64,000 nucleotides of DNA from an uncultured delta proteobacterium. GTDB taxonomy: Bacteria; Desulfobacterota; Binatia; UBA9968. The stretch lies in NCBI GenBank assembly GCA_963816145.1, contig CAWFJP010000012.1:32001-96000 (forward strand), read 5' to 3'. This document shows positions 1 to 16,336 of the stretch, in pieces; within the stretch, counting starts at the first letter, position 1; every line of letters starts with the position of its first letter. A program made the position numbers and the translations under genes. The notes beneath the pieces were generated by a model. It saw only the letters and a program-made list of their open reading frames with translations. It was not told where the DNA came from and searched no databases.

Positions 1-1
1 T

Positions 2-1048: not shown

Positions 1049-1084
1049 ACGCTGAGCAGTTCTGTTACTCCGTATGGCCTCGTC

Positions 1085-3781
1085 CTAACGGCTCTTTTGC
1101 ATCTCGTTGAGCAGGCCCTCGACTTTTTTCAGCTCTTCGCCGTAGCCGGCCCAGTTGCCTTGCTTGAGGAGTTCCTGGGAACGCTGGAAATGGTCTAATG
1201 CCTGGCGTGCCAAGGTTTGATCGGCTTTGACCGGTGTCGGAGCCGCCGTACTGGCAGGTTGTGGCGTCTCAGCCGCCGGCTTGGTGCCGAAAATTCGCTG
1301 CAGCGCTGTATCGAGAGTCTCTTCCATGGCGATGCGGTTACCGAAGGCCACCACCACCCGCTTCAATTCCGGCAAGGATCCTTGCTCCGCAGCCAAATAG
1401 ATCGGTTGCACGTAAAGCAAGGATTTTTCGATGGGGATGGCAAGCAGACTGCCGCGGAGGACTTGAGAACCGCGCTGGCTCCACAGGGTCAGTTGTTGGG
1501 AGATGGTGGTATCTTGATCGATCCGGGCATCGATCTGTTTGGGGCCATAGACAAGTTTTGCCTTGGGAAATTCCAGCGCGGTGAGCTTGCCGTAATTCTT
1601 GCCGTCGCTGCGCGCCGCTAGCCAGGAGCGCATGTTGTCCCGTTTATTGGGCGTGAACGGCAGCAGTAAAATAAATTCTTCTTTCTCCTCCCCCGGCAGG
1701 CGCATGATCGTGTGGTAGGCCTCCATTTCGCTCTCGCGGCCCTCCACGTTTCGCCGCGGGATACTCAGGAGATCCTCCTTGTTAAAAAACACTTGCGGGT
1801 CCTGCATATGGTAAGTGGCGTAGACATGGGCTTGGATGGTGAAGAGATCCTGGGGATAGCGCACATGGGCACGCAGATCTTCGGGCATGGTGTCGAGGGG
1901 CTTAAATACTCGCGGAAAAATCTTCGCGAATGACTGAATGATCGGATCCGTTGGGTCGCTCAGGTAAATTTCCACCGTGCCGTTGTAGGCGTCGACCACG
2001 GCCTTGACCGAATTACGTACATAATTCGTTCCTTGCCGGCTCAGCGGTTCGGAATAGGGGAAACGGTCCGAGTTGGTGTAGCCGTCGACGATCCAAAATA
2101 GCCTGCCGCCCTGGGCAATGACGATATAAGCGTCGCGATCAAAGGTGATAAATGGGGCGATTTTTTTGACCCGCTCCTGGATCTGTTGATGGTAGAGAAT
2201 TCGGCTTTCGCTGATCAGATCCTGTGACAGCAGGATGCGCATGGACGCATGGTGCGCGGCGAAGACCAACTTGCGCCACAAGCTGCCGATCGGCACACCA
2301 CTTGTCCCTTTGTAGGTGGTGTAAACATTTTGATCGCCGGCGGGATAGTCCAATTCCTGCGACTTGGTTCGCACCAGAACATAATCAGTGGCGAGCTCGC
2401 CAAAATAAATCTCGGGACGGGTAATCTTGAGTGAGGTAGTCGCCAGCGGTGGAATATCCTTGATGAAAAACTCGGGTTGGCCGCTAGAAGTCACCTGATT
2501 AACCGGTCCAAAGACCACGCCGTGGCCATGCGTGAAAGTCAGATGCTCATTGATCCAGTTTTGACTTTGCAGATGCCGATGCGACAGCTCGCGGGCGGAC
2601 AACATCACCTGGCGATAAGTGCCGTCGATAACATAGCGATCATTGTCGACGTCGACGAATTTGTAATAAGGCCGGATCTCCTGTAACTGGGCGTAGGTGG
2701 TCAGCAGCGGCCGATGGTCCCATAGGCGGATATTATTTATAGTCGATTCATTTCGCTTCAAGTCTGCCGCGGTTAACTGCTCATCAGCCGGAAACTCCTT
2801 GGTTTCAATCCTATCCAGGCCGAAGGCGAGGCGGGTGAATTTGATCCTGCGCTCGATGAAGGGCCGTTCCGCCTCGATTTCATTGGGTGTCACGCGGAAG
2901 CGCTGCAAAAGCGTCGGATAGGCATTGAGACCCAATAAGTGCACCGCCGCCAAGACTCCGACGCCGAGGAAGACAAATTTATATCCAGTGCGGGCTATCT
3001 GCGCGAAGCAGAGTGCCGACGCGATCAGAGCCAAAAACGTCAGCACGCGCAGCGCCGGTAGTGTGCCATAGATATCGGCAAAGCTCGCGCCGAAAGAAAC
3101 GCCACGCGGCGAATGCAACAGATCGAAAGCGTCGAGGTAGTAGCCGCCGGCCTTGATCAATAGGAACACACCCAACAGGATCAGCAGATGACTACGCGCG
3201 CGCTCACCCAGAAAAAGTCCGCGCGCGGTGTACTCAATACCGCGATAAACCAGGTAGACGGCGGCGCTAGCCACGGCAGTCAGACCGATGGCGAAAATCG
3301 CCCAATGATAAACGATCTGCAGCCAGGGCAAGATAAACACATAAAAACTGACATCGCGGCCGAACTGGGGATCTGTCATGTTGAACGAAACCCGATTGAT
3401 AAATAGAGACAGTTGTTCCCAGCTCGCCGCGCCTTGGGGTGCTGCCATCAGCCCAATCAGGAGCGCACCCGGAAGGAGCAGCCGCTTGAGGATGGGATCG
3501 ATGAGTTCTGGCGGCGGCAGCTCAATAATGTTTTCCGTGCTCGAGTAGCGAAATCCACCTGATGAAGACGAAGCGATCTTCAAATTGACATAAATCATTA
3601 GGGCCAACAGCGTACCGGCGGCAGTGCCGAGTGCGAACTTGTACGATAAGATCGTTGCAAAGAGCTGGCCGTAGCCAACGTCTTGGAACCACAGCCAGTC
3701 GACGTAGAGACCGATCGCTTGGCGAAAAAACATTACGACAAGAAACAAAATCAATATAGTCACGCCGCCAAATTTGCCCAT
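1085..3781 (-). CDS. UPF0182 family integral membrane protein
   Basis: 898 aa. N-terminal TM segments with DWLWF, then NIRLWD, DVDNDRY, HLTFTHG, NYVRNSVK, RYPQDLF and LLYVQPIY, typical of UPF0182. GGAGG RBS upstream. Confidence 0.92.
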   Translation of the reverse strand: MGKFGGVTILILFLVVMFFRQAIGLYVDWLWFQDVGYGQLFATILSYKFALGTAAGTLLALMIYVNLKIASSSSGGFRYSSTENIIELPPPELIDPILKRLLLPGALLIGLMAAPQGAASWEQLSLFINRVSFNMTDPQFGRDVSFYVFILPWLQIVYHWAIFAIGLTAVASAAVYLVYRGIEYTARGLFLGERARSHLLILLGVFLLIKAGGYYLDAFDLLHSPRGVSFGASFADIYGTLPALRVLTFLALIASALCFAQIARTGYKFVFLGVGVLAAVHLLGLNAYPTLLQRFRVTPNEIEAERPFIERRIKFTRLAFGLDRIETKEFPADEQLTAADLKRNESTINNIRLWDHRPLLTTYAQLQEIRPYYKFVDVDNDRYVIDGTYRQVMLSARELSHRHLQSQNWINEHLTFTHGHGVVFGPVNQVTSSGQPEFFIKDIPPLATTSLKITRPEIYFGELATDYVLVRTKSQELDYPAGDQNVYTTYKGTSGVPIGSLWRKLVFAAHHASMRILLSQDLISESRILYHQQIQERVKKIAPFITFDRDAYIVIAQGGRLFWIVDGYTNSDRFPYSEPLSRQGTNYVRNSVKAVVDAYNGTVEIYLSDPTDPIIQSFAKIFPRVFKPLDTMPEDLRAHVRYPQDLFTIQAHVYATYHMQDPQVFFNKEDLLSIPRRNVEGRESEMEAYHTIMRLPGEEKEEFILLLPFTPNKRDNMRSWLAARSDGKNYGKLTALEFPKAKLVYGPKQIDARIDQDTTISQQLTLWSQRGSQVLRGSLLAIPIEKSLLYVQPIYLAAEQGSLPELKRVVVAFGNRIAMEETLDTALQRIFGTKPAAETPQPASTAAPTPVKADQTLARQALDHFQRSQELLKQGNWAGYGEELKKVEGLLNEMQKSR

Positions 3782-3895
3782 TGGGCCTCCATCGAATTTG
3801 AGAGAACTAGGAGAAGTGCCGGGATCGTATAGAAATTACCAGGATGAGGCAATGTGATTTCTGAGATATCTCCATAACCAGAAAACCACTCGGAC

Positions 3896-3933
3896 AAAAA
3901 AAAGTGGCGCTTGGTACGGCCAAGCGCCACTTT
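3896..3933 (-). terminator. Intrinsic terminator of the ABC permease gene
   Basis: Perfect 14-bp stem AAAGTGGCGCTTGG/CCAAGCGCCACTTT with 5-nt loop, then a T-run on the minus strand. Confidence 0.85.
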
Positions 3934-3961
3934 GATTCAAACCGAATTGATGACGGATCGC

Positions 3962-4798
3962 TTATTCAGCGCCGACTTTGGGACGCCACTTGTCGAAGCG
4001 ATGTTCATAGCGGTCGATGACCTCAGTCAAGGCCATACCGCTGATGGCGAAAATCAAGACGCCCACGAACACCTTATCGGTTTGGAAGGTCGCGCCAGCT
4101 ACGGTAATCATGAAGCCGATCCCAGCGGTCGCGGCGTAGAGCTCGCCGACCATGACGCCGATTAGCGCCCGGCCTACAGCCAGACGTAGGCCGGTAAGAA
4201 TAAATGGGACCGTTGACGGCAACACGACGGATTTAAAGATCTGCCACTCCGATGCACCAAAGCTTCTGGCAGCGGTGAGCAAGTTGGCCGGAGTTGTCTT
4301 GACGCCGTCACGGGTGTTGATCAGCAGAGGAAATACTGCGCCTAAGAATATGATGCCAACCTTCGAGAGGATCCCGATGCCCAGCCAGATAATGACCAAG
4401 GGCAAGAGAGCGACACGCGGGGTGGCATTCATGGCGTTGACGAATGGGTCGCAAACGTAGGCGAAGCGCTTGTACCAGCCGATGGCGATACCGAAAGGTA
4501 TGGCGAATACGATCGAGAGAGTATATCCCCAGAAAAATTCGATGCCGCTGATGTAGAGGTCGTTATAGATTTCCCCTGTACTGAACATTTGCCAAGCGGC
4601 TTTGCCAATCAGCGATGGCGCGCTCATGAACATCGGGTTAATGAGCCCCGCCCAGTTGCCGATGGTCTCCCAAGTCAACAGAAAGAGAATCACCGCGGTG
4701 CCGCCGAGAATCTTTTTCTCCTGATTGAGATAAAATTTGTACGCCGCTGATGCTTCCGCGATGCGGATATCTAATAATTGTTCCTCTGCTTGAGCCAT
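3962..4798 (-). CDS. ABC transporter permease, nitrate/sulfonate/taurine (SsuC/TauC-like)
   Basis: About 6 TM helices, EAA-loop equivalent AARSFGAS, then LPSTVPFILTGLR and VGELY. GGAG RBS. Confidence 0.9.
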   Translation of the reverse strand: MAQAEEQLLDIRIAEASAAYKFYLNQEKKILGGTAVILFLLTWETIGNWAGLINPMFMSAPSLIGKAAWQMFSTGEIYNDLYISGIEFFWGYTLSIVFAIPFGIAIGWYKRFAYVCDPFVNAMNATPRVALLPLVIIWLGIGILSKVGIIFLGAVFPLLINTRDGVKTTPANLLTAARSFGASEWQIFKSVVLPSTVPFILTGLRLAVGRALIGVMVGELYAATAGIGFMITVAGATFQTDKVFVGVLIFAISGMALTEVIDRYEHRFDKWRPKVGAE

Positions 4799-4963
4799 AA
4801 AGGTCTCCTCCGTTGGGTTTCCGTTAAATATCGGTTACAGACGCCTAGCCTGCGAACCAGTACCAAAAGGGTCGGAGGTTGTCAACTGAATTATGTGCCT
4901 CAATTCAAATAAATTCCGGCGGGACAATCACTGATCAGTCGGAGACATCGTCTTGGTCTCACC

Positions 4964-4992
4964 TTGACAATCATTAACCTATTAAATACTTT
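4964..4992 (+). promoter_or_regulatory. Sigma70-type promoter for the radical SAM cluster
   Basis: TTGACA (4964-4969), 17-bp spacer, TACTTT (4987-4992) in an AT-rich divergent intergenic region. AGGAGA RBS at 5018-5023. Confidence 0.6.
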
Positions 4993-5027
4993 GATTGAAA
5001 CTAATTCCGCCAGTACCAGGAGATAGC

Positions 5028-6509
5028 ATGAAACTCCTCTTTATTACCCCACCTATGGGCAATTGGGCGCCATGGGGCGACCGCCATTTGGCCGTCAACC
5101 CGCTGCATGCTCAAGTGGCAGCGTTCATCCGCGATAAAAACGCCGCGGAGGTCTCGGTCCTCGATTGTCGCGCTCTTGGTTTGGACGACGACCAGATGAT
5201 CGATGAAGTGAAACGGCAGCGCCCTGAAGCTGTCTTCTTTGGCGCCATGATTGCCGCCGCCGGGGGAGCCGCAACGCTCAATCGCTTCCACGCGGCAATG
5301 CAAAAAATCAAGGCAGTCGCGCCCCAAACGGTTACCATCGGCGGCGGGTTGATGTACACCGCCGTGCCCCAGAAGATCATGACCGACAATCCCCAACTCG
5401 ACTTCGCGATTGTCGGCGTGTTCGCCGACAATGAGTATGGGGTGCGGGAGTTGCTGGAGGAACTCAAAAAACCGGCGCCCGATTTCAGCGGCATCAAAGG
5501 ACTGGCTTATCGAAAGAACGGCGAGGTCGTGCTGACGCCGCCGCGGCCGGTAATTGCCAATCTCGACGAGCTCCCCATGCCGGCCTACGACCTGTTTCCG
5601 ATGGAAAAGTATTATGGTTACTCGGTGATCCCCAATTACAACGAGGCGGTGACTTCGAGGGGCTGCGAGGGCGCTTGCCATTTTTGCTACGAGTGGTGGC
5701 TGGTCGACCAGCGCAGCCCCCGCGACTTCAGCTCGCACCGCACTAAAGGCGGCAAGAAAGTCGCTGAAGAAATGGAGCTGCTCAATAAGACTTATGGCGT
5801 CAAAGCGCTTACTTTTATGGACGACGACTTCAACTCCGACCGGCAGAAGATGGTCGACTTGGTCGAAGCGTTGGAAGAGAAAAAGCTCGATATCAGCTGG
5901 TTCATGCTGAGCCGGGCGCAAAATCTGATTCGCGACATGGATCTTGTGCCACGGTTACGGAAAGTTGGTTTATATCAAGTCTTGATCGGCATCGATGGCG
6001 GCACGGATGAGGAGATCGCCGAAGCGCGCAAGGGGTCGATGAAGGTCGGCGTCAAGGAATTGAAGGAATTGATTCAGTTCCTGCGCAAAAACGACATTTC
6101 CACCATTTCGACTTATCTCAATGGATTTTGGGAAGACGACGAAGCCAAGGTCCGCCAGCGCGCCAAGGCCGTCGACGAGATCGATCCCGATATCGTCATG
6201 ATCCAGGTGCTCAATCCGATCCCCGGCTCGCCGATCTACAAATCGGCGGTGAAGAACAACATTATCGAGGTCGACAATTTGAGCCTCTATGACTTGGAAC
6301 ATAGCGTGATGCCGACCAAGCACTTGACGCGCCAACAGCTGGGCGAGTTGACCGGCTGGGCGTTCCAGTCATTTTACAGCAAGCCGGGCCGGATCGAACG
6401 AATTTTGAATGGCTACACCTCGCCCTACGTGCGGATGAAATTCGAGTCGTTCAAGAGCAATGCGGCGAAGTATGAAAAGGGCGCTGCCGAAGGCACGGTG
6501 GCGATCTAA
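5028..6509 (+). CDS. Cobalamin-binding radical SAM enzyme
   Basis: N-terminal B12-binding-type Rossmann domain (MKLLFITPP...LDCRA...GGG), LDELPMPAYDL linker, SRGCEGACHFC CxxxCxxC motif, FMDDDF, PIPGSPIY. ATG 5028 follows AGGAGA. Confidence 0.9.
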   Translation: MKLLFITPPMGNWAPWGDRHLAVNPLHAQVAAFIRDKNAAEVSVLDCRALGLDDDQMIDEVKRQRPEAVFFGAMIAAAGGAATLNRFHAAMQKIKAVAPQTVTIGGGLMYTAVPQKIMTDNPQLDFAIVGVFADNEYGVRELLEELKKPAPDFSGIKGLAYRKNGEVVLTPPRPVIANLDELPMPAYDLFPMEKYYGYSVIPNYNEAVTSRGCEGACHFCYEWWLVDQRSPRDFSSHRTKGGKKVAEEMELLNKTYGVKALTFMDDDFNSDRQKMVDLVEALEEKKLDISWFMLSRAQNLIRDMDLVPRLRKVGLYQVLIGIDGGTDEEIAEARKGSMKVGVKELKELIQFLRKNDISTISTYLNGFWEDDEAKVRQRAKAVDEIDPDIVMIQVLNPIPGSPIYKSAVKNNIIEVDNLSLYDLEHSVMPTKHLTRQQLGELTGWAFQSFYSKPGRIERILNGYTSPYVRMKFESFKSNAAKYEKGAAEGTVAI

Positions 6510-6523
6510 AATTTAGTTGCACT

Positions 6524-7297
6524 ATGGCACAAATGACACAACTGCCGACACTTCAAGGTAAAGTCGCGCTGGTTACAGGCGCCAGCCGCGGCATTGGCGC
6601 GGCGGCTGCGATTCGCTTAGCTCAAGGGGGAGCGGCGGTTGTCGTCAATTACCACCGGAATCAGGAGGCGGCGCAAAAAGTCCTCGATCAGGTCGAAACC
6701 GCGGGCGGCCGCGGCATCATCTTTCAAGCCGATGTCACGCAGCGCGGGCAAATCGATTCGATGGTCAAGACCGCCAAGAATAAGCTTGGCGACATCAATG
6801 TGCTGGTCAACAACGCCTATTTCCCGTTTCAAGTGAGCCCGCTCCACGAGATCGCCTGGGAGAAATTTCACGAAGCGATCGACAATGAGTTGTCGGCATT
6901 CTATCACTGTGTGCAGGCTTGCTTGCCAGGCATGAAAGCCATGAATGCCGGCCGTGTCATCGTTGTCAGCACCCGTTTGGCCCAGCAGCCGCTGCCGCGC
7001 ATGGGCGCTTACGCGGCGGCCAAATCGGCGCTGGAATCGATGGCCAATACCATGGCCATCGAGCTCGGTCCGCTGGGCGTTGCCGTCAATGTCGTCACTC
7101 CCGCGTTCACGCTGACCGATGCCTCGTTGATCATGCCGGAAGCGTACCGCGAACGGGTGAAAGAAACCCGCCCATTAAAGAAACATCTTTATCCCGCAGA
7201 TGTCGCCGGCGCGATCGCCTTTCTTGCCGGCGATGAAGCAAGCATGTTGACGGGCAGCCATATTCTCATTACTGGTGGCAGTCATCTGCAACTCTAA
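6524..7297 (+). CDS. Short-chain dehydrogenase/reductase (FabG-like)
   Basis: TGASRGIG, LVNNA and YAAAK catalytic motif. Confidence 0.92.
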   Translation: MAQMTQLPTLQGKVALVTGASRGIGAAAAIRLAQGGAAVVVNYHRNQEAAQKVLDQVETAGGRGIIFQADVTQRGQIDSMVKTAKNKLGDINVLVNNAYFPFQVSPLHEIAWEKFHEAIDNELSAFYHCVQACLPGMKAMNAGRVIVVSTRLAQQPLPRMGAYAAAKSALESMANTMAIELGPLGVAVNVVTPAFTLTDASLIMPEAYRERVKETRPLKKHLYPADVAGAIAFLAGDEASMLTGSHILITGGSHLQL

Positions 7298-7298
7298 A

Positions 7299-7423
7299 TA
7301 ATTGAGAATGGATAATTGAGAATTGATAATGGCTGAATCACACAACCTCGCAGCCGCAGGACAACATTTTCCTAGTCTGTCCGAATCCTAAATTGTCCAT
7401 TTTCCATTCTCCATTATCAATTA
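7299..7423. repeat. Inverted pair of 7-nt periodic tracts (AATTGAG/AATGGAT...)
   Basis: AATTGAGAATGGATAATTGAGAATTGATAAT faces its complement ATTGTCCATTTTCCATTCTCCATTATCAATT. Single-arm relatives at about 26520-26552 and 57026-57064. Confidence 0.75.
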
Positions 7424-7429
7424 TTCCTC

Positions 7430-8914
7430 ATGCTTTCCCTCGACGAAATTATTGCCAAGCTGACTGATATCGTCGGTCCGCGGCGGGTCTCGACCAATCC
7501 CATCGACAAGATCAACTATCAACACACTCTGGCTTATGGCGCCTACCGCGCTTTGCCCGACGTGATCGTGCGCGTCGAGTCCGATGCCCAGGGCAACCAC
7601 AAGGTTGCCGACATTCTGAAATTCGCCAACGAACATAAGATTCCCATCGTCGCCAAAGGCGGCGTCGGCATGGGTATCAGTTCACCGCTCAAGGGCGGCG
7701 TCCTGCTCGACATGCTCGGCATGGACAAGATTCTCGAAGTGAATCCGGCCATGCAGTATGTGATCGCCGAAGGCGGCGCCAGCGTCTACGCCATCCATCA
7801 CGCCCTGCGCCAACAGGGGTTGATGCTGCCCAACTTTGGCACCTACGGTCCGGCGGTCGTCATCGGTGCGATGATCAACAAGGGCGGTATTGGCTATGGC
7901 ATGAGCCGGTACGGGTGGATCGCTGATATGGTGCTGGGTTTGGAAGTCATTCTCGCCAACGGCGAAACCATTCGCCTTGGTGCGCTGGCTAATCAGGGCA
8001 CTACATTCGGACCGTTTCAGAAGTGGATTCACCTGCCGGATTTGCTCGGCTTGTTCACTCTCGCTGCCGGATCCATGGGCATCATCAGCAAAGTTTGTCT
8101 GCGCGCGATTCAATGCCGGCGCGAATGGCTGCACGATTACTGCTACGTATTTCGCCGCGATCAGCTGCAACAGGTGCAGGATTCCCTGATAGAATTAGTC
8201 CGCGGCGAAGTCGTCTACGACATCCATTTCACCGACCGCTGGCAGTACCACTGGCCGATGGAAGAGGGGCTGTACGATAAAAACAAGATTCCCGACGACG
8301 GCTGGTTTTTTCTCAAAACCGTTCTAATGGCGCGCGACCAAGAGGAGTTGGGGTTCAAAGAAAAACGCATGCGGCGCATTTATGAAAGCACCGGCGCCGT
8401 GGACGTGCCTGAGATCGCCGACAAGGCGATGGGAGCCAAGGCGCAGGAGCTGGGCCTGCATGGTTGGCCAGACTGGCATATCATGGGACCCGACGCTTGG
8501 TGTGGCACGGTGGTGCGCCACACCGGCATGTTCGCGGTGACTTCAAAGATGTATCCGTTGCGCTTTCTCAAAGAGATGTACGATCTCGACGAAGCGGCCA
8601 AGCGCGAGTGCGGCATTTGGGACGCCGAACATTCGCCGCAGCATGATAGTTACGTTACCCGCGACTTCGCGATTAAAGAAGAGTACTTTACTTTTTACAA
8701 TCCCTACGACGATGAAGATGTCGGCCGGCTGCGCAAATGGATGGGCATGGTGGCGCAGTTCAGCAACGAACGGGGCGTGGTCTGGACGGCGCCGACTCTA
8801 AGCACCAAGGGGCCGGTGCCCTACAACCGGTTGGGCAGCCTCTACGATGTCGTCAAAGAGATCAAGCAGTTGGTCGATCCGAATAATATTCTGAATCCCG
8901 GCGCGCTGTATTAA
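7430..8914 (+). CDS. FAD-binding oxidoreductase, VAO/PCMH (GlcD-like) family
   Basis: PDVIVR, PIVAKGG, GGVLLDM, GLEVILANG, GSMGII and C-terminal DPNNILNPG. Confidence 0.88.
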   Translation: MLSLDEIIAKLTDIVGPRRVSTNPIDKINYQHTLAYGAYRALPDVIVRVESDAQGNHKVADILKFANEHKIPIVAKGGVGMGISSPLKGGVLLDMLGMDKILEVNPAMQYVIAEGGASVYAIHHALRQQGLMLPNFGTYGPAVVIGAMINKGGIGYGMSRYGWIADMVLGLEVILANGETIRLGALANQGTTFGPFQKWIHLPDLLGLFTLAAGSMGIISKVCLRAIQCRREWLHDYCYVFRRDQLQQVQDSLIELVRGEVVYDIHFTDRWQYHWPMEEGLYDKNKIPDDGWFFLKTVLMARDQEELGFKEKRMRRIYESTGAVDVPEIADKAMGAKAQELGLHGWPDWHIMGPDAWCGTVVRHTGMFAVTSKMYPLRFLKEMYDLDEAAKRECGIWDAEHSPQHDSYVTRDFAIKEEYFTFYNPYDDEDVGRLRKWMGMVAQFSNERGVVWTAPTLSTKGPVPYNRLGSLYDVVKEIKQLVDPNNILNPGALY

Positions 8915-8998
8915 ATTCGTTCAAGGTCAGGGGTTCAAAGTCGGCGATTGAGTGCGCATGAGAGTTTTGTTGATTAAGCTGAAGTAAGGAGAAGCATT

Positions 8999-9793
8999 AT
9001 GGGACTGGGCAGACAGGATTTTTCCGGCAAGAAACTTTCCCCGCAGGACGCCGACGCGGTGATCGCGGATTTGAAAAAATATTTGCTCGACCTTGCCGAC
9101 AAATGGCTGATCAAAGGGCGCTTTCACGCTGACATGGGTAATGGCGCGCTGCCCATGGAAGCGATCAAAATTTTCTGGCAAAACTGGTACGGCTTCGTCG
9201 CCGAGATCAATAATTTTCATGGTGTCGCTTATCAGCGTCAGCAGCCGTTTTTTAAACGTCATCCGGAACTGCTCAAACATTTCGCCGCCCATGTGGCCGA
9301 CGAGATGATCCATCCCAAGCCCCCAGGCCATATTCAAATCGTTCTCGAACAGGGGCGCAACTTTGGTCTCAACGACGCCGAAATGGTCGAGTACGAGATG
9401 CTCGCCGAGTGTCGTGCTTTCTTAGAATACTATCGCGGCGTGCTCTACGAGGGCACCATCGTCGAGTGGTGGGCGTCGTTCTGCGTCGAAGAGGCAGTGG
9501 GCCACTGGGCGCGCTTCTTTGGCGGCGCGCTGCGCAAGGTATACAATTTTCCTGAAGATAAGATCGTTTACTTTCGCGTGCACGCCAAAGCTGATCTGGA
9601 AGAGCACGACGGCATTATGGCCCATGCCGATCTCGATTGGCTAGTCCTAAAGAACCTGCTCATCGAAGGTAAGGCCGAGACGCGGCCAGGATTCAATCTC
9701 GAATACTGCATGCGCATGGGCACGGCGTATTTCGCCTGGTTCTTTGAAGGTGTGTACCAGCAGATTAAAAAGGAAGGCCTCTACAAAGAATAA
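8999..9793 (+). CDS. Heme-oxygenase-like (PqqC/TenA/CADD fold) dimetal redox enzyme
   Basis: Helical 264 aa protein with DEMIHPKPPGH, VEEA and YFRVHAKADLEEH, matching the E..H/E/HxxxD..H ligand pattern of CADD-like diiron enzymes. AAGGAG RBS. Confidence 0.7.
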   Translation: MGLGRQDFSGKKLSPQDADAVIADLKKYLLDLADKWLIKGRFHADMGNGALPMEAIKIFWQNWYGFVAEINNFHGVAYQRQQPFFKRHPELLKHFAAHVADEMIHPKPPGHIQIVLEQGRNFGLNDAEMVEYEMLAECRAFLEYYRGVLYEGTIVEWWASFCVEEAVGHWARFFGGALRKVYNFPEDKIVYFRVHAKADLEEHDGIMAHADLDWLVLKNLLIEGKAETRPGFNLEYCMRMGTAYFAWFFEGVYQQIKKEGLYKE

Positions 9794-9795
9794 AT

Positions 9796-10823
9796 ATGGC
9801 GGAGCCTACGAAAGAGGACATTTCACCCCGTCCGCTGATGCGCATACTCGGCGATTTCGCCAACAGTCAAATTCTGGACGCGGCGCTGGAATACGATTTT
9901 TTCACGCTGATCAGCAAAGGTTTTAATAGCGCCGAAGCGGTGGCGCGCGAGGCCGGCACCGATGCGCGGGCCACGCGCATCGTGCTCGACAGCTTACCGG
10001 CATTGTCCTTGATCGAAAAACGCGACGGCAAGTATTTCCTTACGCCATCGGCGCAGGCCTTTCTGGTCAAGGGCAAGCCTTCCTATTGCGGCGATTTCCG
10101 CCATGTCGCCTTAGCGCTGTGGGACGGCATGGCTCATCTCAAAGAATCGCTCAAGACCGGCAAACCGCTGAGTCGTATGGATACCCATGCCGAGCTGCAG
10201 GTGTGGGAAAAACTCGTGCTCGGCATCATCGTGATTGCCGAGCCGGCGGCCAAGGCGCTGTGCGATATTCTAAAAATCGGCAGCGAGCGCAAAGGGCTGC
10301 GCGTGCTCGACATCGCCGGCGGTTCGAGCATCTTCGGCATGACCATCGTGACGCGCGACCCAACGGCGCAGGTCACCCAGCTCGACTGGCCCAACGTCAA
10401 CGCGGTGGCGAGGAAGGCCAACAAGGAGCGCGGCCTTGAAGGCAAGATTCGCTTCATCGACGGCGAGCATCACACGGCCGACATCGAATCGAATCACTAT
10501 GATTTGGTTCTCGCCAGTAATTTCTGCCGCTTCGAATCGCCCAAACGCAATCAAGAACTGTTCGCCAAAGCGTTTTCCGCTTTGAAGCCGGGCGGTATCT
10601 TCGTTGTTAATGATTTCGTGCCCAACGAAGAACGCACCGAGCCGACCTTCGCGTTGCGCTTTTCCGTTTACACGCTGACGCACACGCCGGAGGGCGAGTG
10701 CTGGACCTTATCGCAATATTCCGATTGGTTGAAAGAAAGCGGGTTTCGCTTCGATCACGATCTCACGGCGATATTCCCAAGACGCTTCCGGGGACCACGC
10801 TGATTCTGGCGACGAAAAGTTAA
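9796..10823 (+). CDS. SAM-dependent methyltransferase (Methyltransf_2 with dimerisation domain); C-terminus probably frameshifted
   Basis: Winged-helix dimerisation N-terminus, VLDIAGGS, QLDWPNV, LKPGG. Called ORF ends at 10803. Removing two single bases near 10745-10763 gives a family-like end GFASITIHGDIPKTLPGTTLILATKS* at 10823. Confidence 0.85.
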
Positions 10824-11017
10824 AAGAACTTAGCCGCACCCTTCGACTGCTCTCAGGGGCGATCCGAATGCAGAGTAGACAAATTCTCGTAGGATCGGTT
10901 GAGTTCCGAGGAATCCGAACGCTGGCGCTTTCGCACTGGAGCGCGGCAGCGCGCAGATTAACTGCGCCCCGACAAAGTCGGTTGCCATTGCCGGGATGAA
11001 ACCGCGGCTGGCAGTTT

Positions 11018-11926
11018 CTAGAAGAATTTCTTGCCGCCGCTTTCCCAGCGGGTGAGACCTTTGCCTTGTTCTTTGCGGGCGGCGATGATGCGGCGCCATT
11101 TTTCTTCGTCGTCGAGCAGTTCTTCCTTCTGATTCGGCGCGTGGGCGGTGATTTGTAAACGATTATTGTCGGGATCGAAAAGATAGATGCTGCGTTCGCC
11201 TTCGGGTCTTAGCCCATCATCAGCGCGCTTGTCGCCCTGACTCTTGCCGCCGTAGCGTTCGACCAGCGCGACCATGGAATCGAAATCTTCCTGCGGTACA
11301 TTCATCGCCATATGACAGCCGCGGCCGTGTTTCTTGCTGCGCTCGGATAGTTCCGCGACTTCTACGAGACCGATCATCTGACCGTTGCGCGTTGGGATCA
11401 ACATCTCATCGCCAAACGCGATTGGCACAGCCGTGCCGAGCACTTCGGAGTAAAAGGTTAGCGCCTTTTTCATGTTGCAAGTTTCGAATACCGTGTGGCT
11501 GATACATTCGTCGAGAGGCTCGACGCTGCGCACGCAGAATTCAAGATGATTGCCGTCGGGATCGTCGAAATAGATCGAGCGGCTAATCGCCGCTTCGGGC
11601 GAATGTCGGACTGGGCCTTTGAACAGGTGTTTCGCCAAAAGTAGATTCTGTTCAACCTGGTCGAACTGCTCGCTGGTGACGCTGATTCCGATGCGCGGGC
11701 CGGCGCTGGCAGACGGCCCAGCGTTGATGCCCGGCAGGTGTAGGCCGATTATGTTTCCCCCGGCGAGCACATAGGTTTGGCGCGGAGCGCCGTCGGGGTT
11801 AAGCCGGGTGGTTTTGAACTTCAGTCCCAAGGTATTGATATAAAAATTTTGATTGACCTCCAAATCGCGCACCGGGATCGCGATGTGATCGATGGTTTCG
11901 ACGCCGTAACGAATTTCTGCGACCAT
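11018..11926 (-). CDS. Two-domain VOC (glyoxalase/bleomycin resistance) protein
   Basis: IDHIAIPVRDL...YFDDPDGNHLE and ISHTVF...YLFDPDNNRLQ. GGAGG RBS. Confidence 0.85.
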   Translation of the reverse strand: MVAEIRYGVETIDHIAIPVRDLEVNQNFYINTLGLKFKTTRLNPDGAPRQTYVLAGGNIIGLHLPGINAGPSASAGPRIGISVTSEQFDQVEQNLLLAKHLFKGPVRHSPEAAISRSIYFDDPDGNHLEFCVRSVEPLDECISHTVFETCNMKKALTFYSEVLGTAVPIAFGDEMLIPTRNGQMIGLVEVAELSERSKKHGRGCHMAMNVPQEDFDSMVALVERYGGKSQGDKRADDGLRPEGERSIYLFDPDNNRLQITAHAPNQKEELLDDEEKWRRIIAARKEQGKGLTRWESGGKKFF

Positions 11927-12036
11927 TCAACTTACCTCCGACACTGCAGCCCAATTTTTCCGAGAAAACTAACTCTATTAACTCCACAGCGTCAACCCTG
12001 GGGGCAAATTTTTTCTTGCCGCTGGGCGCAAACCGT

Positions 12037-13282
12037 TTAGCCAATTTCCGGAAACGTAAACTGCCTTTTGCCCAGCCGCCGCGCGCCGTTTTTCTCAATC
12101 ACCACGGTGTCACCGCAGCGGATCGAGTCGGGGGCATCGCCGGGCATGGCGCCGGGCTTGAGCACGAAGACATTACCTTCGAGCAGTGGCAAATCTAAGT
12201 GTTGAGTATAGGTCGCGCTGGTGTACATATCGCCGGCGACTTCGCCGGTAATCTGTGGCCGGTCTTCGCCGATACCGCGGCCGTGAAGCAACATGCCTTT
12301 GGGAATGAAACCGGCTTCGCGGACGAGCTTCTGGTAAAACTCGACTACGGCGCGATAGGAGACGCCGGGTTGCATGAACTGCACCAGTTCGTTAAACACG
12401 TTGACGCTGGCCTCGAAGGCGCGCTGTCAGATCGATGGGAATCTTACCCAAGCATGCGGCTTGCACGGTCTGAGAAATATAGCCGCCGTACTTCGCTTCC
12501 AATTCCGTGTTGATCATGTCGCCGGCTTGCAGCGGCCGATGGGGCGCGATGCGGCAGGCCCAAGGCACTCCGGCACCGGCGCCCCAGTGGGTCATCGATG
12601 GATAATCGCCGCCATTGGCAATGATCGTCTGCCAGATCGTCGCGACCATGTCGTTTTCCATGACGCCGGGGCGCGCTTTGGCGAGGATCGCGGCAACCAC
12701 TTTGTCGAGGATCTCCGCGGCGCGTTCCATCCAGGCGATTTCTTCGGCGCCTTTGATCGAGCGGGCGTCCTGTAATAGTTCGGTGGCGTTTTCAAAGTTG
12801 GCGTCGGGAAACGCGCGGCGCACGCTGTCGAGCATACCGCTGACCACGGTGCCTTCGGGTGCGCGTAAGAGGCCGCTCAGGCCGCTGACGCCGATTCGCC
12901 CGCGGTCCAACTTCAACTCTTTCATGCGCGCGATCATCGGTGGGCTCCATTCGCGCCGCGACGGGCGAATGTCAGTGGTCCAATCCTGAGCGACGCGCCA
13001 CCACTCGATTTCATTGCTGCCACGGACAAAGGCGGTGGGTTCGACCGCTATGGGAAAAACGACGGCAACTTCGGTTTGATGGCCGCCAATGTGGGTGAGG
13101 TAACGAATGTCGGCTTGGAACTGATCCCAATGGCTCTGGTTGGGAAATCCGATGATGGCGTCGAGCTGCTCGCGCTCCATTAGCTCGCGTACCCGTGACC
13201 AGCGCCGCTCTCGTTCCATGACGCTGAATTTACCTAGGCCAAAGCCTCTTTCACCGCTGTTTATCATGCTTCCGGCGCTCAC
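12037..13282 (-). CDS. M24 (Xaa-Pro peptidase/creatinase) family protein, split by a frameshift near 12427
   Basis: ORFs 12392-13282 and 12037-12399 join into creatinase-N plus pita-bread domains (RSIKGAEEI, HGRGIG, DTVVI) if one base is removed. Confidence 0.8.
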
Positions 13283-13451
13283 TTTCTTTCGATAATTCGT
13301 TATCTATAGGGCACCGACAGCCATGGATCAATGGTTTGCCTAGCTTTGACCGAATCTAGGTGCTAGAGTCCGGCCGTGCCGATGAAACGCCAAGCTGCCG
13401 ATTGCGCCGTGCAAGTCCGCCGCATCTAAGTCCCGCTCACGGGATATCCTT

Positions 13452-14858
13452 ATGCAATACCTGGCCATCTGCGAGGACGATCTGTTGTTTCAGTTCATGC
13501 GCAATGTCGCCACCGAGCAGGGCGACGTGCGCTACCTCGTGCCTAATGCAAATATCGCCCAGCGTATCAAACGGCAACGGGGTAAGGTTTGGCATGGCGA
13601 TCTGGTAAATGAAGAGACCTACAAGAAAATCAAACTGCACCATGTCGATCAGGCGGTGGTTTTTGTCCGTGACGGTGACGAACAGGATCGGGTGTGCCGC
13701 TTGTTGCGTGCCCTCGACAAAAATATCCCGATCGTTTCCTTGACATCGGAAAAAAACGGCAAAAAAACTACGAAAGAACCCGACGATCCGTTGTTGCGCC
13801 ACTTGCAGCTCGCCGATATTTTCGCCGAGTTTTGCGCAACTCAACTGCTCGACACTCTCAATATCAAGAAAGTCGAGCGCATCCGCTCGTTGTTCGACGA
13901 AGGCAAGAAGATTCACATCCTATTGCAGCATGATCCCGATCCCGACGCCATCGGCAGCGCTTTGGCGCTGCGCGAGTTGCTCGGGCGCAACCGTACGACC
14001 ACGCCGATCGTGACGTTCGGCTCCATCACCCGCCCGGAGAATTTGGCGATGATCGAGCTGTTGGAAATTCACATCGATCAGATCACCCCCGATGACTTAC
14101 ACAAAGACGGCGCACGCCTAGCCATGGTCGACGTCCAGCCGCCTTACTTTGAGCAGACCCTCGGACGGGTCGACCTGGTCGTCGACCACCATCCGAAGCG
14201 GAGCAACTTCAAGGCGCGCTTCGCCGATTTGCGCACCGCCTACGGCTCGACGGCGACGATCTTCACAGAATATCTACGTGCCGCCGGCATGGAGCCGTCG
14301 CAGCGCTTAGCCACCGCGCTGCTCTACGGCATCAAGACCGATACGTTGTTTCTCGAACGGGGCAGCAATTTGGCCGACTTGAGTGCGTTCAACTATCTTT
14401 ATCCGATCGCCAATAAGGCGATGATTGCCCGCATCGAACGACCGGCGCTGCCGCGTGAAGATCTCGAAGCGATGGGGCGGGCACTGAGCCACCTGCAAAT
14501 CGATAGCGGTGTCGCGGTGATCCACTTGGGCGAAGTCAACCGCGAAGACGTGATTCCGCAGATGGCGGAGTTTTGCTTGCAAATCGAAGGCGTTGACTGG
14601 AGCGTAGTATCCGGTTTAGTAAACAATCGCGTTGTCATCTCGGTGCGCAATGTTGGCTACGTCAAGAGCGCCGGCGAGATCATGAAAAAACTCTACGACG
14701 ATATCGGCAGCGCCGGCGGCCACCGTGCCATGGCCAAAGCCGTGGTTCCCCTCGACCGTTTCAAAGAGCGCTTCGGCGAAGTCAGCGAGAAAGTCATTCG
14801 CGAAGCGATGCTGCCGCTGATCGTCGATAAAGATCAGATCGAGCTGGAGTTGCGATAA
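13452..14858 (+). CDS. DHH/DHHA1 phosphoesterase with N-terminal TrkA-N/RCK-like domain
   Basis: HDPDPDAIGSA, VDVQ, VVDHH, GIKTDT and GGHRAMA motifs. The first 130 or so residues resemble a degenerate RCK domain (VWHGD...LKKIKL..VDQAVV). Confidence 0.85.
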   Translation: MQYLAICEDDLLFQFMRNVATEQGDVRYLVPNANIAQRIKRQRGKVWHGDLVNEETYKKIKLHHVDQAVVFVRDGDEQDRVCRLLRALDKNIPIVSLTSEKNGKKTTKEPDDPLLRHLQLADIFAEFCATQLLDTLNIKKVERIRSLFDEGKKIHILLQHDPDPDAIGSALALRELLGRNRTTTPIVTFGSITRPENLAMIELLEIHIDQITPDDLHKDGARLAMVDVQPPYFEQTLGRVDLVVDHHPKRSNFKARFADLRTAYGSTATIFTEYLRAAGMEPSQRLATALLYGIKTDTLFLERGSNLADLSAFNYLYPIANKAMIARIERPALPREDLEAMGRALSHLQIDSGVAVIHLGEVNREDVIPQMAEFCLQIEGVDWSVVSGLVNNRVVISVRNVGYVKSAGEIMKKLYDDIGSAGGHRAMAKAVVPLDRFKERFGEVSEKVIREAMLPLIVDKDQIELELR

Positions 14859-14867
14859 ACGGATTCG

Positions 14868-14941
14868 TTGGAGTGATGGAGTGGTGGAGTAATGGGTTAT
14901 CCGCAGCCCACCACTCCAATGCTCCAGCACTCCATTACTCC
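14868..14941. repeat. Inverted 8-nt periodic repeat (GGAGTRRT)n
   Basis: GGAGTGAT GGAGTGGT GGAGTAAT GGG ... CCCACCACTCCAATGCTCCAGCACTCCATTACTCC. Relative at about 51087-51159. Confidence 0.75.
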
Positions 14942-14964
14942 GCTGCCATTCGTACCGCCGCCAA

Positions 14965-14994
14965 TTGACAAGCCAACCCGCGCCGCGATAGGTT
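14965..14994 (+). promoter_or_regulatory. Putative sigma70 promoter of the cupin-VOC-TcuA operon
   Basis: TTGACA, 18-bp spacer, TAGGTT. AGGAGG RBS before 15029. Confidence 0.5.
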
Positions 14995-15028
14995 CGGTCG
15001 CACCGGCAACCCGGTTCAGGAGGGCGTT

Positions 15029-15382
15029 ATGGAATGCATTAATCTGGGTCAGAAGATCGACGAGGCGCGCGCGCAGAAGATTAAAAACAGCCATTTCTTC
15101 GGCACGGACAATTTTCGCACCTGGATGCTTTACTTCGAGCCCGGCGACGATACACCGATGCATTTTCATCAGAACCCGGAAACTTTCCTGGTGGTCCGGG
15201 GCGAGTGTTCGATCAAGGATCTCAAAGGCGGCGAGCGGGTGGTCAAAAAGGACGACATCGTGTTTTTCGCGGCCAAGGAGTACTACCAGCTAATCAACAA
15301 GGGGACCGAACCCCTGGTGTTGTTCGGCAATCGCTCCGAACCGTTCGGTATTGGCATCACCCGAGCCGAAGCAACAAAATAG
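15029..15382 (+). CDS. Cupin domain protein
   Basis: PGDDTPMHFHQNPETFLVVRG cupin motif 1; 117 aa. Confidence 0.85.
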   Translation: MECINLGQKIDEARAQKIKNSHFFGTDNFRTWMLYFEPGDDTPMHFHQNPETFLVVRGECSIKDLKGGERVVKKDDIVFFAAKEYYQLINKGTEPLVLFGNRSEPFGIGITRAEATK

Positions 15383-15418
15383 ATTTCGACAATTTCAAAC
15401 TTTTCCTAGGAGGAATAT

Positions 15419-15811: not shown

Positions 15812-15846
15812 CAGTCTCCCAGAATTTTCAAGGCAAGGAGGACAAT

Positions 15847-16239: not shown

Positions 16240-16336
16240 TTAGCCGAAACGATAGCCGCTTCTCGTATCCTTAGATTGGGCCGGCGAGGGCGATACGGTC
16301 GCCGACCCAAGAGCGGAACAAACGGGGGTCAGCGCG

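Follow-up and report, generated by a model that had tools for sequence, protein, structure and literature searches.

We analyzed a stretch of 64,000 nucleotides (the window) from an uncultured delta proteobacterium of the class Binatia (assembly GCA_963816145.1, contig CAWFJP010000012.1, positions 32,001 to 96,000), and in particular a cluster of five genes located at positions 5028-10803 of its plus strand. The five co-oriented open reading frames (ORFs) encode, in this order, a B12-binding radical S-adenosylmethionine (SAM) enzyme, a short-chain dehydrogenase/reductase (SDR), a flavoprotein of the FAD_binding_4 type (FAD, flavin adenine dinucleotide), a haem-oxygenase-like (HO-like) protein and a family-2 methyltransferase. 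An initial annotation, made from the sequence alone, had described five co-oriented genes of these kinds; the ORFs were confirmed, and so were the domain calls for all five proteins when they were screened with Pfam and NCBIfam. The results presented below reveal that these genes form a near-core operon specific to one family of the Binatia and that they separate into modules, and they suggest that the flavoprotein is a dehydrogenase subunit with an iron-sulfur partner.

The five genes and their promoter

The first gene (5028..6509, + strand) encodes an enzyme of 493 residues with Pfam Radical_SAM and B12-binding domains, which is BchE-like but not BchE. Its ORF opens at a TTG codon at 4995 (ORF 4995-6509); the true start is most likely the ATG at 5028, because the relatives are 493 residues long and the sequence AGGAGA is located 4 nt before that ATG. 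The second gene (6524..7297, +) encodes a classical SDR of 257 residues (adh_short_C2, E 3e-51) containing the TGxxxGIG and YxxxK motifs, whose nearest solved structures are FabG and glucose 1-dehydrogenase (E 2e-37), and which reached no NCBIfam cut-off. The third gene (7430..8914, +) encodes the FAD_binding_4 flavoprotein (494 residues; Pfam E 1e-29), the probable FAD subunit of an FAD/Fe-S dehydrogenase. The fourth (8999..9793, +) encodes the HO-like protein, a predicted haem-oxygenase-like dimetal enzyme (HDO) that matches TENA_THI-4 and Haem_oxygenas_2 and for which an AlphaFold2 (AF2) model was made. The last gene (9796..10803, +) starts 2 nt past the HDO stop codon and encodes a SAM-dependent methyltransferase of 335 residues with a Methyltransf_2 domain and an N-terminal Dimerisation domain. 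The solved structures nearest to it are 2r3s, an uncharacterised protein (E 1e-34), then DsyB (9e-23), MfnG, RedM and SibL. None of the five proteins reached a curated cut-off in the NCBIfam scan, and Pfam gave generic domains only. The cluster contains no regulator, nonribosomal peptide synthetase, polyketide synthase or precursor-peptide ORF according to the ORF list and the Pfam scan, as the initial annotation had stated for the latter three.

A promoter was predicted at positions 4964..4992 (+), 36 nt upstream of the ATG. It consists of TTGACA (4964-4969), a 17-nt spacer containing ATTAAATA, and TACTTT (4987-4992). Inspection by eye, without a count, of 35 aligned upstream regions revealed TTGACA-N17-TA(C/T)TTT with the same spacer motif, at a constant distance to the ATG, in nearly all of them, the promoter of locus L066 being degenerate; this conservation bears out the promoter-like sequence that had been noticed initially. 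The motif is also present where the upstream gene is a different one, and at loci where the radical SAM gene is alone or is accompanied by the methyltransferase gene only. In the 7.8-Mb genome there is a single exact copy of the motif, and the 18 matches obtained when 1-2 substitutions were allowed look like generic promoters. Its conservation across changing contexts and its single genomic occurrence argue that the predicted promoter belongs to the radical SAM gene. A consensus promoter scanner missed the site because its -10 box is weak (TACTTT matches the consensus at 3/6 positions). A scan of positions 1-18000 of the window against Rfam (E <= 1) gave no match; therefore, no riboswitch accounts for the conserved leader.

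The spacing between the genes was determined for the related loci described in the next section. Median gaps are 15 nt between the radical SAM and SDR genes (n=38), 110.5 nt between the SDR and flavoprotein genes (n=60), 73.5 nt between the flavoprotein and HDO genes (n=36) and 2 nt between the HDO and methyltransferase genes (n=30). The SDR-flavoprotein gap of the window is filled by a long AT-rich inverted repeat (7297..7425) with arms of 34 nt (7297-7330 and 7392-7425) that are 82% complementary and enclose a loop of 61 nt; its minimum free energy is -36.2 kcal/mol (z -5.2), and 0 of 200 shuffled sequences folded as well. The homologous gaps differ in sequence and also form inverted repeats, and only 22 of 57 loci showed folding with z < -3. 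The hairpin is a frequent but inconstant feature, which may serve processing, stabilisation or attenuation, or may be a small repeat element. The idea that this gap encodes the precursor of a ribosomally synthesized and post-translationally modified peptide was discarded, as it carries the inverted repeat and no conserved small ORF.

Conservation, modularity and neighbours of the operon

A search with the radical SAM protein, taking one genome per species, yielded 79 loci, nearly all of which are located in metagenome-assembled genomes (MAGs) labelled Candidatus Binatia or "delta proteobacterium". The initial annotation had staked the cluster on co-occurrence in related genomes. The genes do co-occur: the identical five-gene order is present in 48 of the 79 loci, and a further 23 are cut by a contig end but are consistent with it. 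Only the methyltransferase gene is missing at one locus, two loci (L052, L074) contain only the radical SAM and methyltransferase genes, four (L057, L064, L066, L070) contain the radical SAM gene alone, and L084 contains a paralogue of 55% identity. At the locus that lacks only the methyltransferase gene (L019, on a contig of genome G232), the HDO gene is followed by a DHH gene after about 430 nt.

We then determined the distribution of the genes. In the family to which the window belongs, the radical SAM gene is present in 79 of 90 genomes (30 of the 31 of high quality), and the flavoprotein gene in 75 of 90 (29 of the 31). When the 90 genomes were tallied by hand, 72 contained both genes, eight neither, seven only the radical SAM gene and three only the flavoprotein gene, and most of the discordances concern genes at contig ends. 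Some of the genomes counted are marked unpublished (G005, G240 and G256, and G243 in the flavoprotein tally and in that of its iron-sulfur partner given below), and no statement rests on those alone. Outside the family, the radical SAM gene (E <= 1e-60) was found in one of the two genomes that represent a second family, and the 185 genomes from 18 further families of the class gave no match; for the flavoprotein, only relatives of 30-33% identity were found, in 4 of 399 genomes (401 were sampled from the phylum). The radical SAM, flavoprotein and methyltransferase genes are single-copy in the genome. The radical SAM relatives among the 120 matches listed are 82-94% identical, and nearly all have 493 residues. 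The cluster enzymes are better conserved than the neighbouring housekeeping-type UPF0182 gene; at L017, for example, identities are 86% for the radical SAM enzyme, 87% for the flavoprotein and 67% for UPF0182. The cluster is, therefore, a near-core operon specific to one Binatia family.

Six records (L022, L032, L037, L063, L064 and L082) are labelled Udaeobacter, Verrucomicrobiia, Eisenbacteria, Acidiferrales or Limnocylindrales. The contig of L064 is that of G152, which is placed in the window's own family, so that at least this label, and perhaps the others too, reflects binning or naming and not spread to other phyla. In soil and groundwater metagenomes, single clusters at 90% identity contain up to 1,537 members for the flavoprotein and 1,604 for the HO-like protein; the ESM Atlas returned only unnamed clusters of B12 radical SAM and HO-like proteins. 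Among the matches listed, our literature searches found no paper on a cluster combining heme-oxygenase-like, radical SAM and cobalamin functions, also when FAD-binding and O-methyltransferase were added, and the matches for Binatota together with radical SAM concern, to judge from their titles and abstracts, antibiotic gene clusters of Antarctic soil bacteria.

The exceptions to the common gene order show how the operon comes apart. In genus g9 (G152, G241), the SDR-flavoprotein-HDO-methyltransferase block is intact and the radical SAM gene has a separate location, immediately after an EamA transporter gene; in L096, the same block, again separated from the radical SAM gene, still has the gene of a glyoxalase/vicinal oxygen chelate (VOC) protein near it. 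Genome G281 has the order HDO-SDR-flavoprotein-CCG, CCG being the iron-sulfur protein gene discussed below, and on another contig the order radical SAM-methyltransferase-DHH. The promoter accompanies the radical SAM gene in all rearranged contexts. Because the arrangements of g9 and G281 keep the SDR, flavoprotein and HDO genes linked, this trio is the tightest unit; the methyltransferase gene can accompany either part, and the radical SAM gene can be separated from the others. Unlinked genes nevertheless co-occur in the same genome in G152, G241, G281, G283 and G284, and G230, which is 96% complete, has none of the radical SAM, flavoprotein and CCG genes.

As the initial annotation had described, the operon is bounded by a divergent and a convergent gene. 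The upstream one (3962..4798, -) encodes a TauC/SsuC-type ATP-binding cassette (ABC) permease (BPD_transp_1; the NCBIfam models SaoP, TauC and SsuC all stay below their cut-offs). The earlier statement that there is no transporter thus holds inside the five genes, but the divergent neighbour is itself a permease gene and is kept in 50 of the 79 loci; the corresponding numbers for the DHH, M24 and VOC genes are 35, 18 and 16. The downstream one (11018..11926, -) encodes a two-domain glyoxalase/VOC protein of 302 residues (Glyoxalase family). Further downstream are an M24 gene of the creatinase/prolidase type (12037-13282, -), split by a frame change, and the gene of a DHH/DHHA1 protein (13452-14858, +). 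The frame change in the M24 gene is located near 12420-12428: residues 2-282 of the intact 411-residue orthologue at L097 correspond to frame -1, and residues 285-410 to frame -2, so that the gene is either a pseudogene or affected by an assembly indel. For an ORF of 89 codons at 10830-11099 (-), none of the 79 related loci contains a counterpart, and it is probably not a real gene. Elsewhere in the window, positions 25326-36982 (+) contain an ordinary and unrelated run of respiratory complex I genes (49-kDa, 24-kDa, 51-kDa and 75-kDa subunits, NuoH and three antiporter-like subunits), and expanded families are exemplified by three NMT1 genes (16337-17374, 39795-40760 and 54667-55395); several genes for cupins, luciferase-like monooxygenases, molybdenum (Mo) hydroxylases and OCD/mu-crystallin proteins are present as well.

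Assignment of the enzymes

The radical SAM enzyme scores 32.6 bits with the B12-binding model PF02310 (cut-off 32.1) and 42 bits with PF04055 (cut-off 29.5), and it contains the CxxxCxxC motif as CEGACHFC. By these features it is assigned to the B12-binding type (class B), and cobalamin binding is predicted. Its best NCBIfam match is BchE (TIGR02026; E 4e-48), with 164.4 and 163.7 bits against a cut-off of 481.35; the HpnJ model gave 122 bits against 578. It is the best BchE-like gene of the genome, and the BchE model also produces scores below the cut-off in 12 of 14 non-phototroph control genomes. The methyltransferase scores 29.9 bits with the BchU model (TIGR02716; cut-off 276.1), and three other loci in the genome fit that model better (62-72 bits). 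In the genome, which is 99.47% complete, BchH gave 0 matches and the best BchL match has 30 bits against a cut-off of 345. The decoration of tetrapyrroles, one of the options named in the initial annotation, thus fails. The same holds for another option, the remodelling of the cobamide lower ligand: the radical SAM enzyme scores 77.6 bits with BzaD (TIGR04385; E 1e-21; cut-off 450), nothing in the genome exceeds the cut-off for BluB, and CobS gave 29 bits against 110, but this match is full-length within a frame of 240 residues, so that the genome may encode a divergent CobS. The observation that every NCBIfam match is far below its curated cut-off agrees with the initial statement that the cluster matches no recognised pathway. 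Phosphonate synthesis, which matches to a P-methylase and to FosB-like proteins had brought to mind, was dropped, as no phosphoenolpyruvate mutase over the cut-off was found in the genome (best 142 bits against 320). Many genomes of the family contain a second B12 radical SAM paralogue (53-59% identical), which the genome of the window does not have; the paralogue at L084 is located near UbiD, NMT1 binding-protein and luciferase-like monooxygenase genes.

The HO-like protein scores 24.0 bits with TENA_THI-4 (PF03070; cut-off 22) and 26.7 bits with Haem_oxygenas_2 (cut-off 28.9). A single-sequence search of solved structures gave only chance matches to annexins; a profile of the family detected CADD (E 0.008). 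The AF2 model, based on an alignment of 26 orthologues, is all-helical (predicted local distance difference test, pLDDT, 93.4), and Foldseek found CADD as its best match (E 4e-07; template modelling (TM) score 0.70 query, 0.85 target), followed by PqqC, TenA, UndA and BesC, consistent with the seven-helix haem-oxygenase-like fold of HDOs. Residues E102, H111, E165, H195, D199 and H203 are invariant in the 26 sequences. In the profile alignment to CADD, E102 and H111 fall on its DE...H motif, E165 on the central Glu, and H195 and D199 on the H and D of H...D..H; the last His of CADD aligns with E202, at the end of the alignment, and H203 is the next residue beyond. By the numbering that we assume for CADD, we take its residues aligned here to be the metal ligands. 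On the evidence of the model and the alignment, the HO-like protein is predicted to be a metal-binding dimetal enzyme with a complete and invariant site of three His and three carboxylate ligands. According to a review of this family (PMC13108848), such a 3His/3carboxylate primary ligand set defines most HDOs, the function is known for no more than about a dozen of them, and those characterised act mostly on fatty or amino acids. By analogy, this preference may give a hint, the only one, at the substrate class.

The score with PF03070 would also be compatible with TenA, as would the invariant Cys138 if it corresponds to the catalytic Cys of that enzyme, but this Pfam family includes PqqC and CADD-like proteins as well; the full dimetal ligand set argues for an HDO. 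Synthesis of para-aminobenzoic acid (pABA) of the CADD kind was rejected: the protein scores 24.6 bits with TIGR04305 (cut-off 200), and, as read from the profile alignment, it has His44 and Gly175 at the positions of the sacrificial Tyr27 and neighbouring Lys152 described for CADD in the relevant part of PMC9522330. Because of these replacements it is not a pABA synthase of that kind. The genome encodes seven paralogues of the HO-like protein with 28-42% identity (contigs C3, C16, C14, C30 and C11; loci L090-L095), and the genomes of relatives have up to 18 HO-like matches each. A UbiD gene is located directly beside two of the seven paralogues and two genes away from a third; others are located beside DHDPS-family, DAO, cupin and Mo-hydroxylase genes. 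With eight paralogues per genome in this organism, this HDO family is a reservoir of new chemistry.

The assignment of the flavoprotein depends on how its relatives are searched for. In a single-sequence search against solved structures, p-cresol methylhydroxylase (PCMH) comes first (E 5e-19), with eugenol and vanillyl-alcohol oxidases. The profile search places D-lactate dehydrogenase at the top (112 bits versus 90 for PCMH), and in the search with the fold model the two types are about equal, D-lactate dehydrogenase giving E 1e-25 (TM 0.75/0.81) and eugenol oxidase 5e-24 (TM 0.78/0.74). The sequence alignments to solved relatives cover the FAD domain only. With the GlcD model (TIGR00387), the flavoprotein scores 84.6 bits against a cut-off of 567.9, and the FAD-oxidase_C model PF02913 gave 18.9 bits against 21.2 over 21 residues.

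The genomic context of the relatives was decisive. In G281 (L108), a gene encoding a protein with a 4Fe-4S dicluster and two CCG domains is located within a few bases downstream of the flavoprotein gene, and the coordinates place it likewise in G227. Besides these two deep genera, all five distant homologue loci (L107, L110-L113) have it next to the flavoprotein gene; in the latter four, which contain flavoprotein homologues of 30-33% identity from other families, it is directly downstream in every case, and an SDR gene follows it in three. A CCG/4Fe-4S partner is what the GlcD/D-lactate dehydrogenase type has, and here both the adjacency and a complex model are in line with it. A model of the complex of the L108 pair scored 0.89, compared with 0.00 for the best of three controls; the mark applied is reached by 116 of 157 solved complexes and 2 of 215 mismatched pairs, counts that hold only approximately, as our own alignments were used. 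The model runs have at least 72% of the contacts in common, the pLDDT of the partner is at least 84, and the modelled interface includes flavoprotein residues 18-36, which are nearly invariant in the window's protein family. The model supports binding between the two proteins; it does not show it. Because the CCG gene is adjacent in the relatives and the complex is predicted, the flavoprotein is probably the FAD subunit of a two-subunit FAD/Fe-S dehydrogenase and not an O2-using oxidase. The initial annotation had called it a flavoprotein of the vanillyl-alcohol oxidase (VAO) type: the FAD_binding_4 assignment stands, and a dehydrogenase subunit is more likely than the O2-using oxidase that this name suggests. 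Since this leaves the flavoprotein out, the HO-like enzyme is the only probable user of O2 in the cluster. Pairings of a B12 radical SAM enzyme with an oxygenase are not rare in actinomycete clusters, and we did not count the present one as a surprise, although it had been described as unusual.

One of the distant loci (L111, contig C17 of G328, 30% flavoprotein homologue) contains the CCG partner, two SDR genes and then an old-yellow-enzyme gene; upstream are genes for a corrinoid protein (B12-binding and B12-binding_2) and a methyltransferase of the URO-D family. This locus is another, independent pairing of B12 chemistry with the dehydrogenase module.

Among the 90 genomes of the window's own family, 75 carry one copy of the CCG orthologue; G226 and G230, both without the flavoprotein gene, have none. 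The orthologue in the genome of the window (66% identical) is unlinked to the five genes and is located on contig C17 (307314-315357; locus L114, 8314-15357). There it heads an operon that continues with genes for a PNP_UDP phosphorylase, an IF-2B/MtnA-like isomerase, a class II aldolase and an acyl-CoA ligase, often followed by a phosphopantetheinyl transferase gene; upstream is a divergent gene of the metallo-beta-lactamase fold. All eight other genomes of the family that were examined have the same gene order after the CCG gene; with the genome of the window included, seven genera are covered. The order phosphorylase-isomerase-aldolase is that of the MtnP variant of the dihydroxyacetone phosphate (DHAP) shunt, which, in the part of PMC10986504 that concerns us, uses the phosphorylase MtnP, MtnA and Ald2 for methylthioadenosine and 5'-deoxyadenosine. 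The proteins, though, stay below the curated cut-offs: the phosphorylase is best matched by uridine phosphorylase, with 132.5 bits against 280.3, the isomerase scores 193 bits with MtnA (TIGR00512) against 279, and the aldolase 135 bits with PRK08660 against 203. An ORF of 102 codons after the phosphopantetheinyl transferase gene, checked as a possible carrier protein, matched no Pfam family. The link between the five-gene operon and the operon on contig C17 is real at the level of one common subunit.

The proposed pathway and its competitors

Starting from the observed anatomy, conservation, modularity and metal-ligand set, and from the genomic and modelled pairing of the flavoprotein with the CCG protein, we infer the chemical steps, their order and the nature of the substrate. 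With a confidence somewhat short of even, we propose that the genes constitute a near-core, family-specific pathway of three separable modules, which carries out a several-step modification of one small soluble metabolite. In the first module, the BchE-like B12 radical SAM enzyme, expressed from its own strong and conserved promoter, would functionalise an unactivated C-H bond by methylation or by a BchE-type oxidation. In the second, an old dehydrogenase module, the SDR and the GlcD/VAO-type flavoprotein, which would pass electrons to the HdrD/GlcF-like CCG/4Fe-4S subunit, would oxidise an alcohol or 2-hydroxy-acid function without O2. In the third, the HDO, translationally coupled to the family-2 methyltransferase, would perform an O2-dependent cleavage, decarboxylation or N-oxygenation, which would be followed by a methyl cap. 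A housekeeping-type conversion, with a salvage or cofactor-like product, is favoured over a classical secondary-metabolite cluster because the genes are single-copy, highly conserved and near-universal in the family, and are not accompanied by a regulator or a scaffold-forming enzyme. The general idea of the initial annotation, a small-molecule pathway matching none that is known, is retained; the options it named fail, and the five genes are not one indivisible unit.

Several observations weigh against the three-module scheme. For a salvage or catabolic route, it is unusual to involve a methyltransferase and a B12 radical SAM enzyme. The strong conservation comes entirely from one family, synteny by descent inflates the counts, which are not independent, and many of the discordant genomes are fragmentary MAGs. 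In G282 (6 Mb), a 70%-identical radical SAM gene is located next to a UbiD gene, and no flavoprotein orthologue was found. Concerning the second module, the model of the flavoprotein is moderate (pLDDT 78) and its C-terminal domain is very divergent; because the "GEHG"-type stretch of D-lactate dehydrogenases is replaced by APTLSTKG, it is not a standard 2-hydroxy-acid dehydrogenase. The complex was modelled with the pair of G281, not with the proteins of the window's genome, and its high score may reflect likeness to solved FAD/Fe-S complexes. Finally, the CCG frame in the genome of the window lacks a canonical start before the first Cys motif and reads into the phosphorylase domain (668-residue open frame), whereas in eight other genomes the CCG protein is encoded by a separate gene of 403-446 codons; the copy may be mis-assembled or altered.

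Two of the competing explanations are specific versions of the three-module scheme. The first, which we consider unlikely, is that the operon funnels an aromatic compound: a scavenged compound, such as a 4-alkylphenol or a lignin-derived phenolic acid, imported by the ABC permease, would be hydroxylated at the benzylic carbon by the flavoprotein in the manner of PCMH, the SDR would oxidise the alcohol, and the HDO and the neighbouring, dioxygenase-like VOC protein would open or trim the product. The PCMH and eugenol/vanillyl-alcohol oxidase matches of the flavoprotein, including the fold match to eugenol oxidase, and the convergent two-domain VOC protein fit this idea, and the contexts of homologues are rich in enzymes of aromatic acids. 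A metagenome contig with a 43% flavoprotein homologue (L104) has the order UbiD-M24-SDR-flavoprotein, and L105 contains a Mo-hydroxylase gene together with a flavoprotein gene. UbiD genes adjoin radical SAM homologues in L066 and L070, the latter with two UbiD genes, a binding protein and a permease, are three genes away in L084 and are also found near the homologues in L108; as mentioned above, they are found near HO-like paralogues as well. The 45% radical SAM homologue of L109 is flanked by TRAP transporter genes (DctPQM) and an Amidohydro_2 gene, and EamA transporter genes are located next to cluster homologues in L057 and L064. These contexts suggest small, carboxylated, possibly aromatic substrates. 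However, according to tblastn the genome contains about 44 UbiD decarboxylase, 138 Amidohydro_2 and 346 NMT1/THI5-type solute-binding loci, three extraordinarily expanded families, so that adjacency is weak evidence; the association with UbiD alone clearly exceeds expectation, and none of these contexts concerns the cluster of the window itself. Deducing a function from adjacency to NMT1 binding proteins was rejected in view of the number of such loci. Further points against an aromatic funnel are the CCG Fe-S partner, typical of GlcD/GlcF hydroxy-acid dehydrogenases and not the cytochrome c of PCMH, the ranking of D-lactate dehydrogenase above PCMH in the profile search, the lack of an adjacent regulator, usual in catabolic operons, and the methyltransferase and B12 radical SAM enzyme, which have no obvious catabolic role.

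The main sceptical alternative, rather unlikely in our view, is that the five genes are not one pathway but neighbours by descent in one family, and that at least the radical SAM gene, and perhaps the methyltransferase gene, works independently of the SDR-flavoprotein-HDO trio. Because the modules do separate, the radical SAM enzyme may indeed serve another pathway: its gene has its own promoter in every context and is found alone, beside other genes or only with the methyltransferase gene at the six loci listed above, the methyltransferase gene is missing at L019, and the SDR-flavoprotein gap is long (median about 110 nt) and often contains a hairpin. The restriction of the evidence to one family also fits this alternative. 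On the other side are the five genomes in which unlinked genes still co-occur, the joint absence of the radical SAM, flavoprotein and CCG genes from G230, the rearranged orders, which keep genes adjacent, and the short median gaps at the radical SAM-SDR (15 nt) and HDO-methyltransferase (2 nt) junctions.

The CCG subunit offers a way to join the two operons. We regard it as quite improbable that the five genes and the CCG/phosphorylase/isomerase/aldolase/acyl-CoA-ligase operon form one undescribed aerobic pathway, in which a 5'-deoxynucleoside-derived or scavenged small acid would be converted into a methylated product by way of the B12 radical SAM enzyme, the FAD/Fe-S dehydrogenase and the dimetal oxygenase. 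If true, the product could be a new cofactor-like metabolite, or the pathway could be a new way to reclaim carbon or sulfur from SAM by-products; it would be restricted to an abundant family of uncultured soil Binatia. The second specific version of the three-module scheme, for which the chances appear slimmer still, is an extension of SAM by-product salvage: the five genes would process an aldehyde or acid from 5'-deoxyadenosine or methylthioadenosine, possibly for an aerobic recovery of sulfur or carbon. The gene order behind CCG, found in the genome of the window and in the eight others, resembles the known DHAP shunt with MtnP, MtnA and Ald2 (PMC10986504, the part cited above), two of the five enzymes consume SAM, the second-best solved relative of the methyltransferase, DsyB, S-methylates a methionine-derived 2-hydroxy acid, and the fold of the flavoprotein matches D-2-hydroxy-acid dehydrogenases. 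However, the link is indirect, via a single common subunit, the shunt-like proteins are all below curated cut-offs, DsyB is no closer than several unrelated O-, N- and C-methyltransferases, and the B12 radical SAM enzyme would be left without a role.

The remaining two explanations have next to no probability. The tailoring of a bacteriochlorophyll-type tetrapyrrole by a BchE cyclase and a BchU-like methyltransferase, implied by automatic annotation because BchE is the best NCBIfam match, and seemingly in line with the bchE, bchQ, bchR and bchU homologues that Murphy et al. 2021 (PMC8262859) report, in the sections concerned, as ubiquitous in Binatota, is refuted as a claim of membership by the BchE and BchU scores, the performance of the BchE model in non-phototroph controls, the better BchU matches elsewhere in the genome, and the BchH and BchL results. 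The synthesis or remodelling of a cobamide lower ligand by a BzaC-like O-methyltransferase and a BzaD/BzaE-like radical SAM enzyme agrees with the domain types (Methyltransf_2 in BzaC, B12 radical SAM in BzaD/E) and with the weak BzaD match, but it fails on the BzaD, BluB and CobS results, on the number of radical SAM genes, a single one against the two required by the Bza route, and on the SDR, flavoprotein and HDO, which have no place in that route.

Of these explanations, we retain the pathway of three separable modules, and we see several reasons why it matters. The genes abound in soil and groundwater metagenomes and are near-universal in one family of a phylum without a cultured member, and no curated family names any of the five proteins. 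The pairing of the flavoprotein with the CCG protein, and through it the link to a salvage operon of the SAM-by-product type, provides a directly testable handle. A further reason concerns the "incomplete chlorophyll pathway" reported for Binatota in PMC8262859, the authors of which, in the same sections, themselves doubted phototrophy. The "bchE" of that report is presumably the present radical SAM gene, that is, a BchE-like gene in a non-tetrapyrrole operon of a genome without the Mg-chelatase H subunit or the light-independent protochlorophyllide oxidoreductase.

The genetic organization and the enzymes described here can be compared with several known systems. With BchE and other class B enzymes, such as HpnJ and the PhpK-type P-methylases, the radical SAM enzyme has in common the N-terminal B12-binding domain and the radical SAM core with CxxxCxxC. 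However, it reaches only one third of the BchE cut-off, its genome has no chlorophyll pathway, and its genomic partners are wholly different. BzaC-BzaD-BzaE, which make 5,6-dimethylbenzimidazole from 5-hydroxybenzimidazole, also combine a family-2 methyltransferase with B12 radical SAM enzymes; here, in contrast, the BzaD score is far below the cut-off, a single radical SAM gene takes the place of two, and the cluster has three additional redox enzymes. The HO-like protein has the seven-helix fold of the HDO superfamily (CADD, a self-sacrificing pABA synthase, UndA and BesC) together with the 3His/3carboxylate pattern, and CADD is its best structural match. It differs from CADD in that the identity is about 15%, the sacrificial Tyr and the neighbouring Lys are replaced, the score is below the curated cut-off, and it belongs to a family of eight members in the genome.

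The VAO/PCMH subfamily that oxidises 4-phenols is characterised by a Tyr-Tyr-Arg triad binding the phenolate and by a covalent link to the flavin. In the anaerobic alkylphenol pathway, PCMH or 4-ethylphenol methylenehydroxylase acts with an SDR, and the likeness to the present cluster is a VAO-family flavoprotein beside an SDR. The partner here, however, is a CCG Fe-S protein and not a cytochrome c, and the known pathway contains no HDO, methyltransferase or radical SAM enzyme. Finally, the flavoprotein has the FAD_binding_4 fold in common with the GlcD/GlcF and D-lactate dehydrogenase types, the latter being its top match by fold and profile, and the CCG partner resembles GlcF, GlpC, TfrB and LdhH in having a 4Fe-4S dicluster and two CCG domains. 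The differences from GlcD are that the flavoprotein is below the GlcD cut-off, that its C-terminal domain is barely recognisable, and that the partner gene is unlinked in most genomes.

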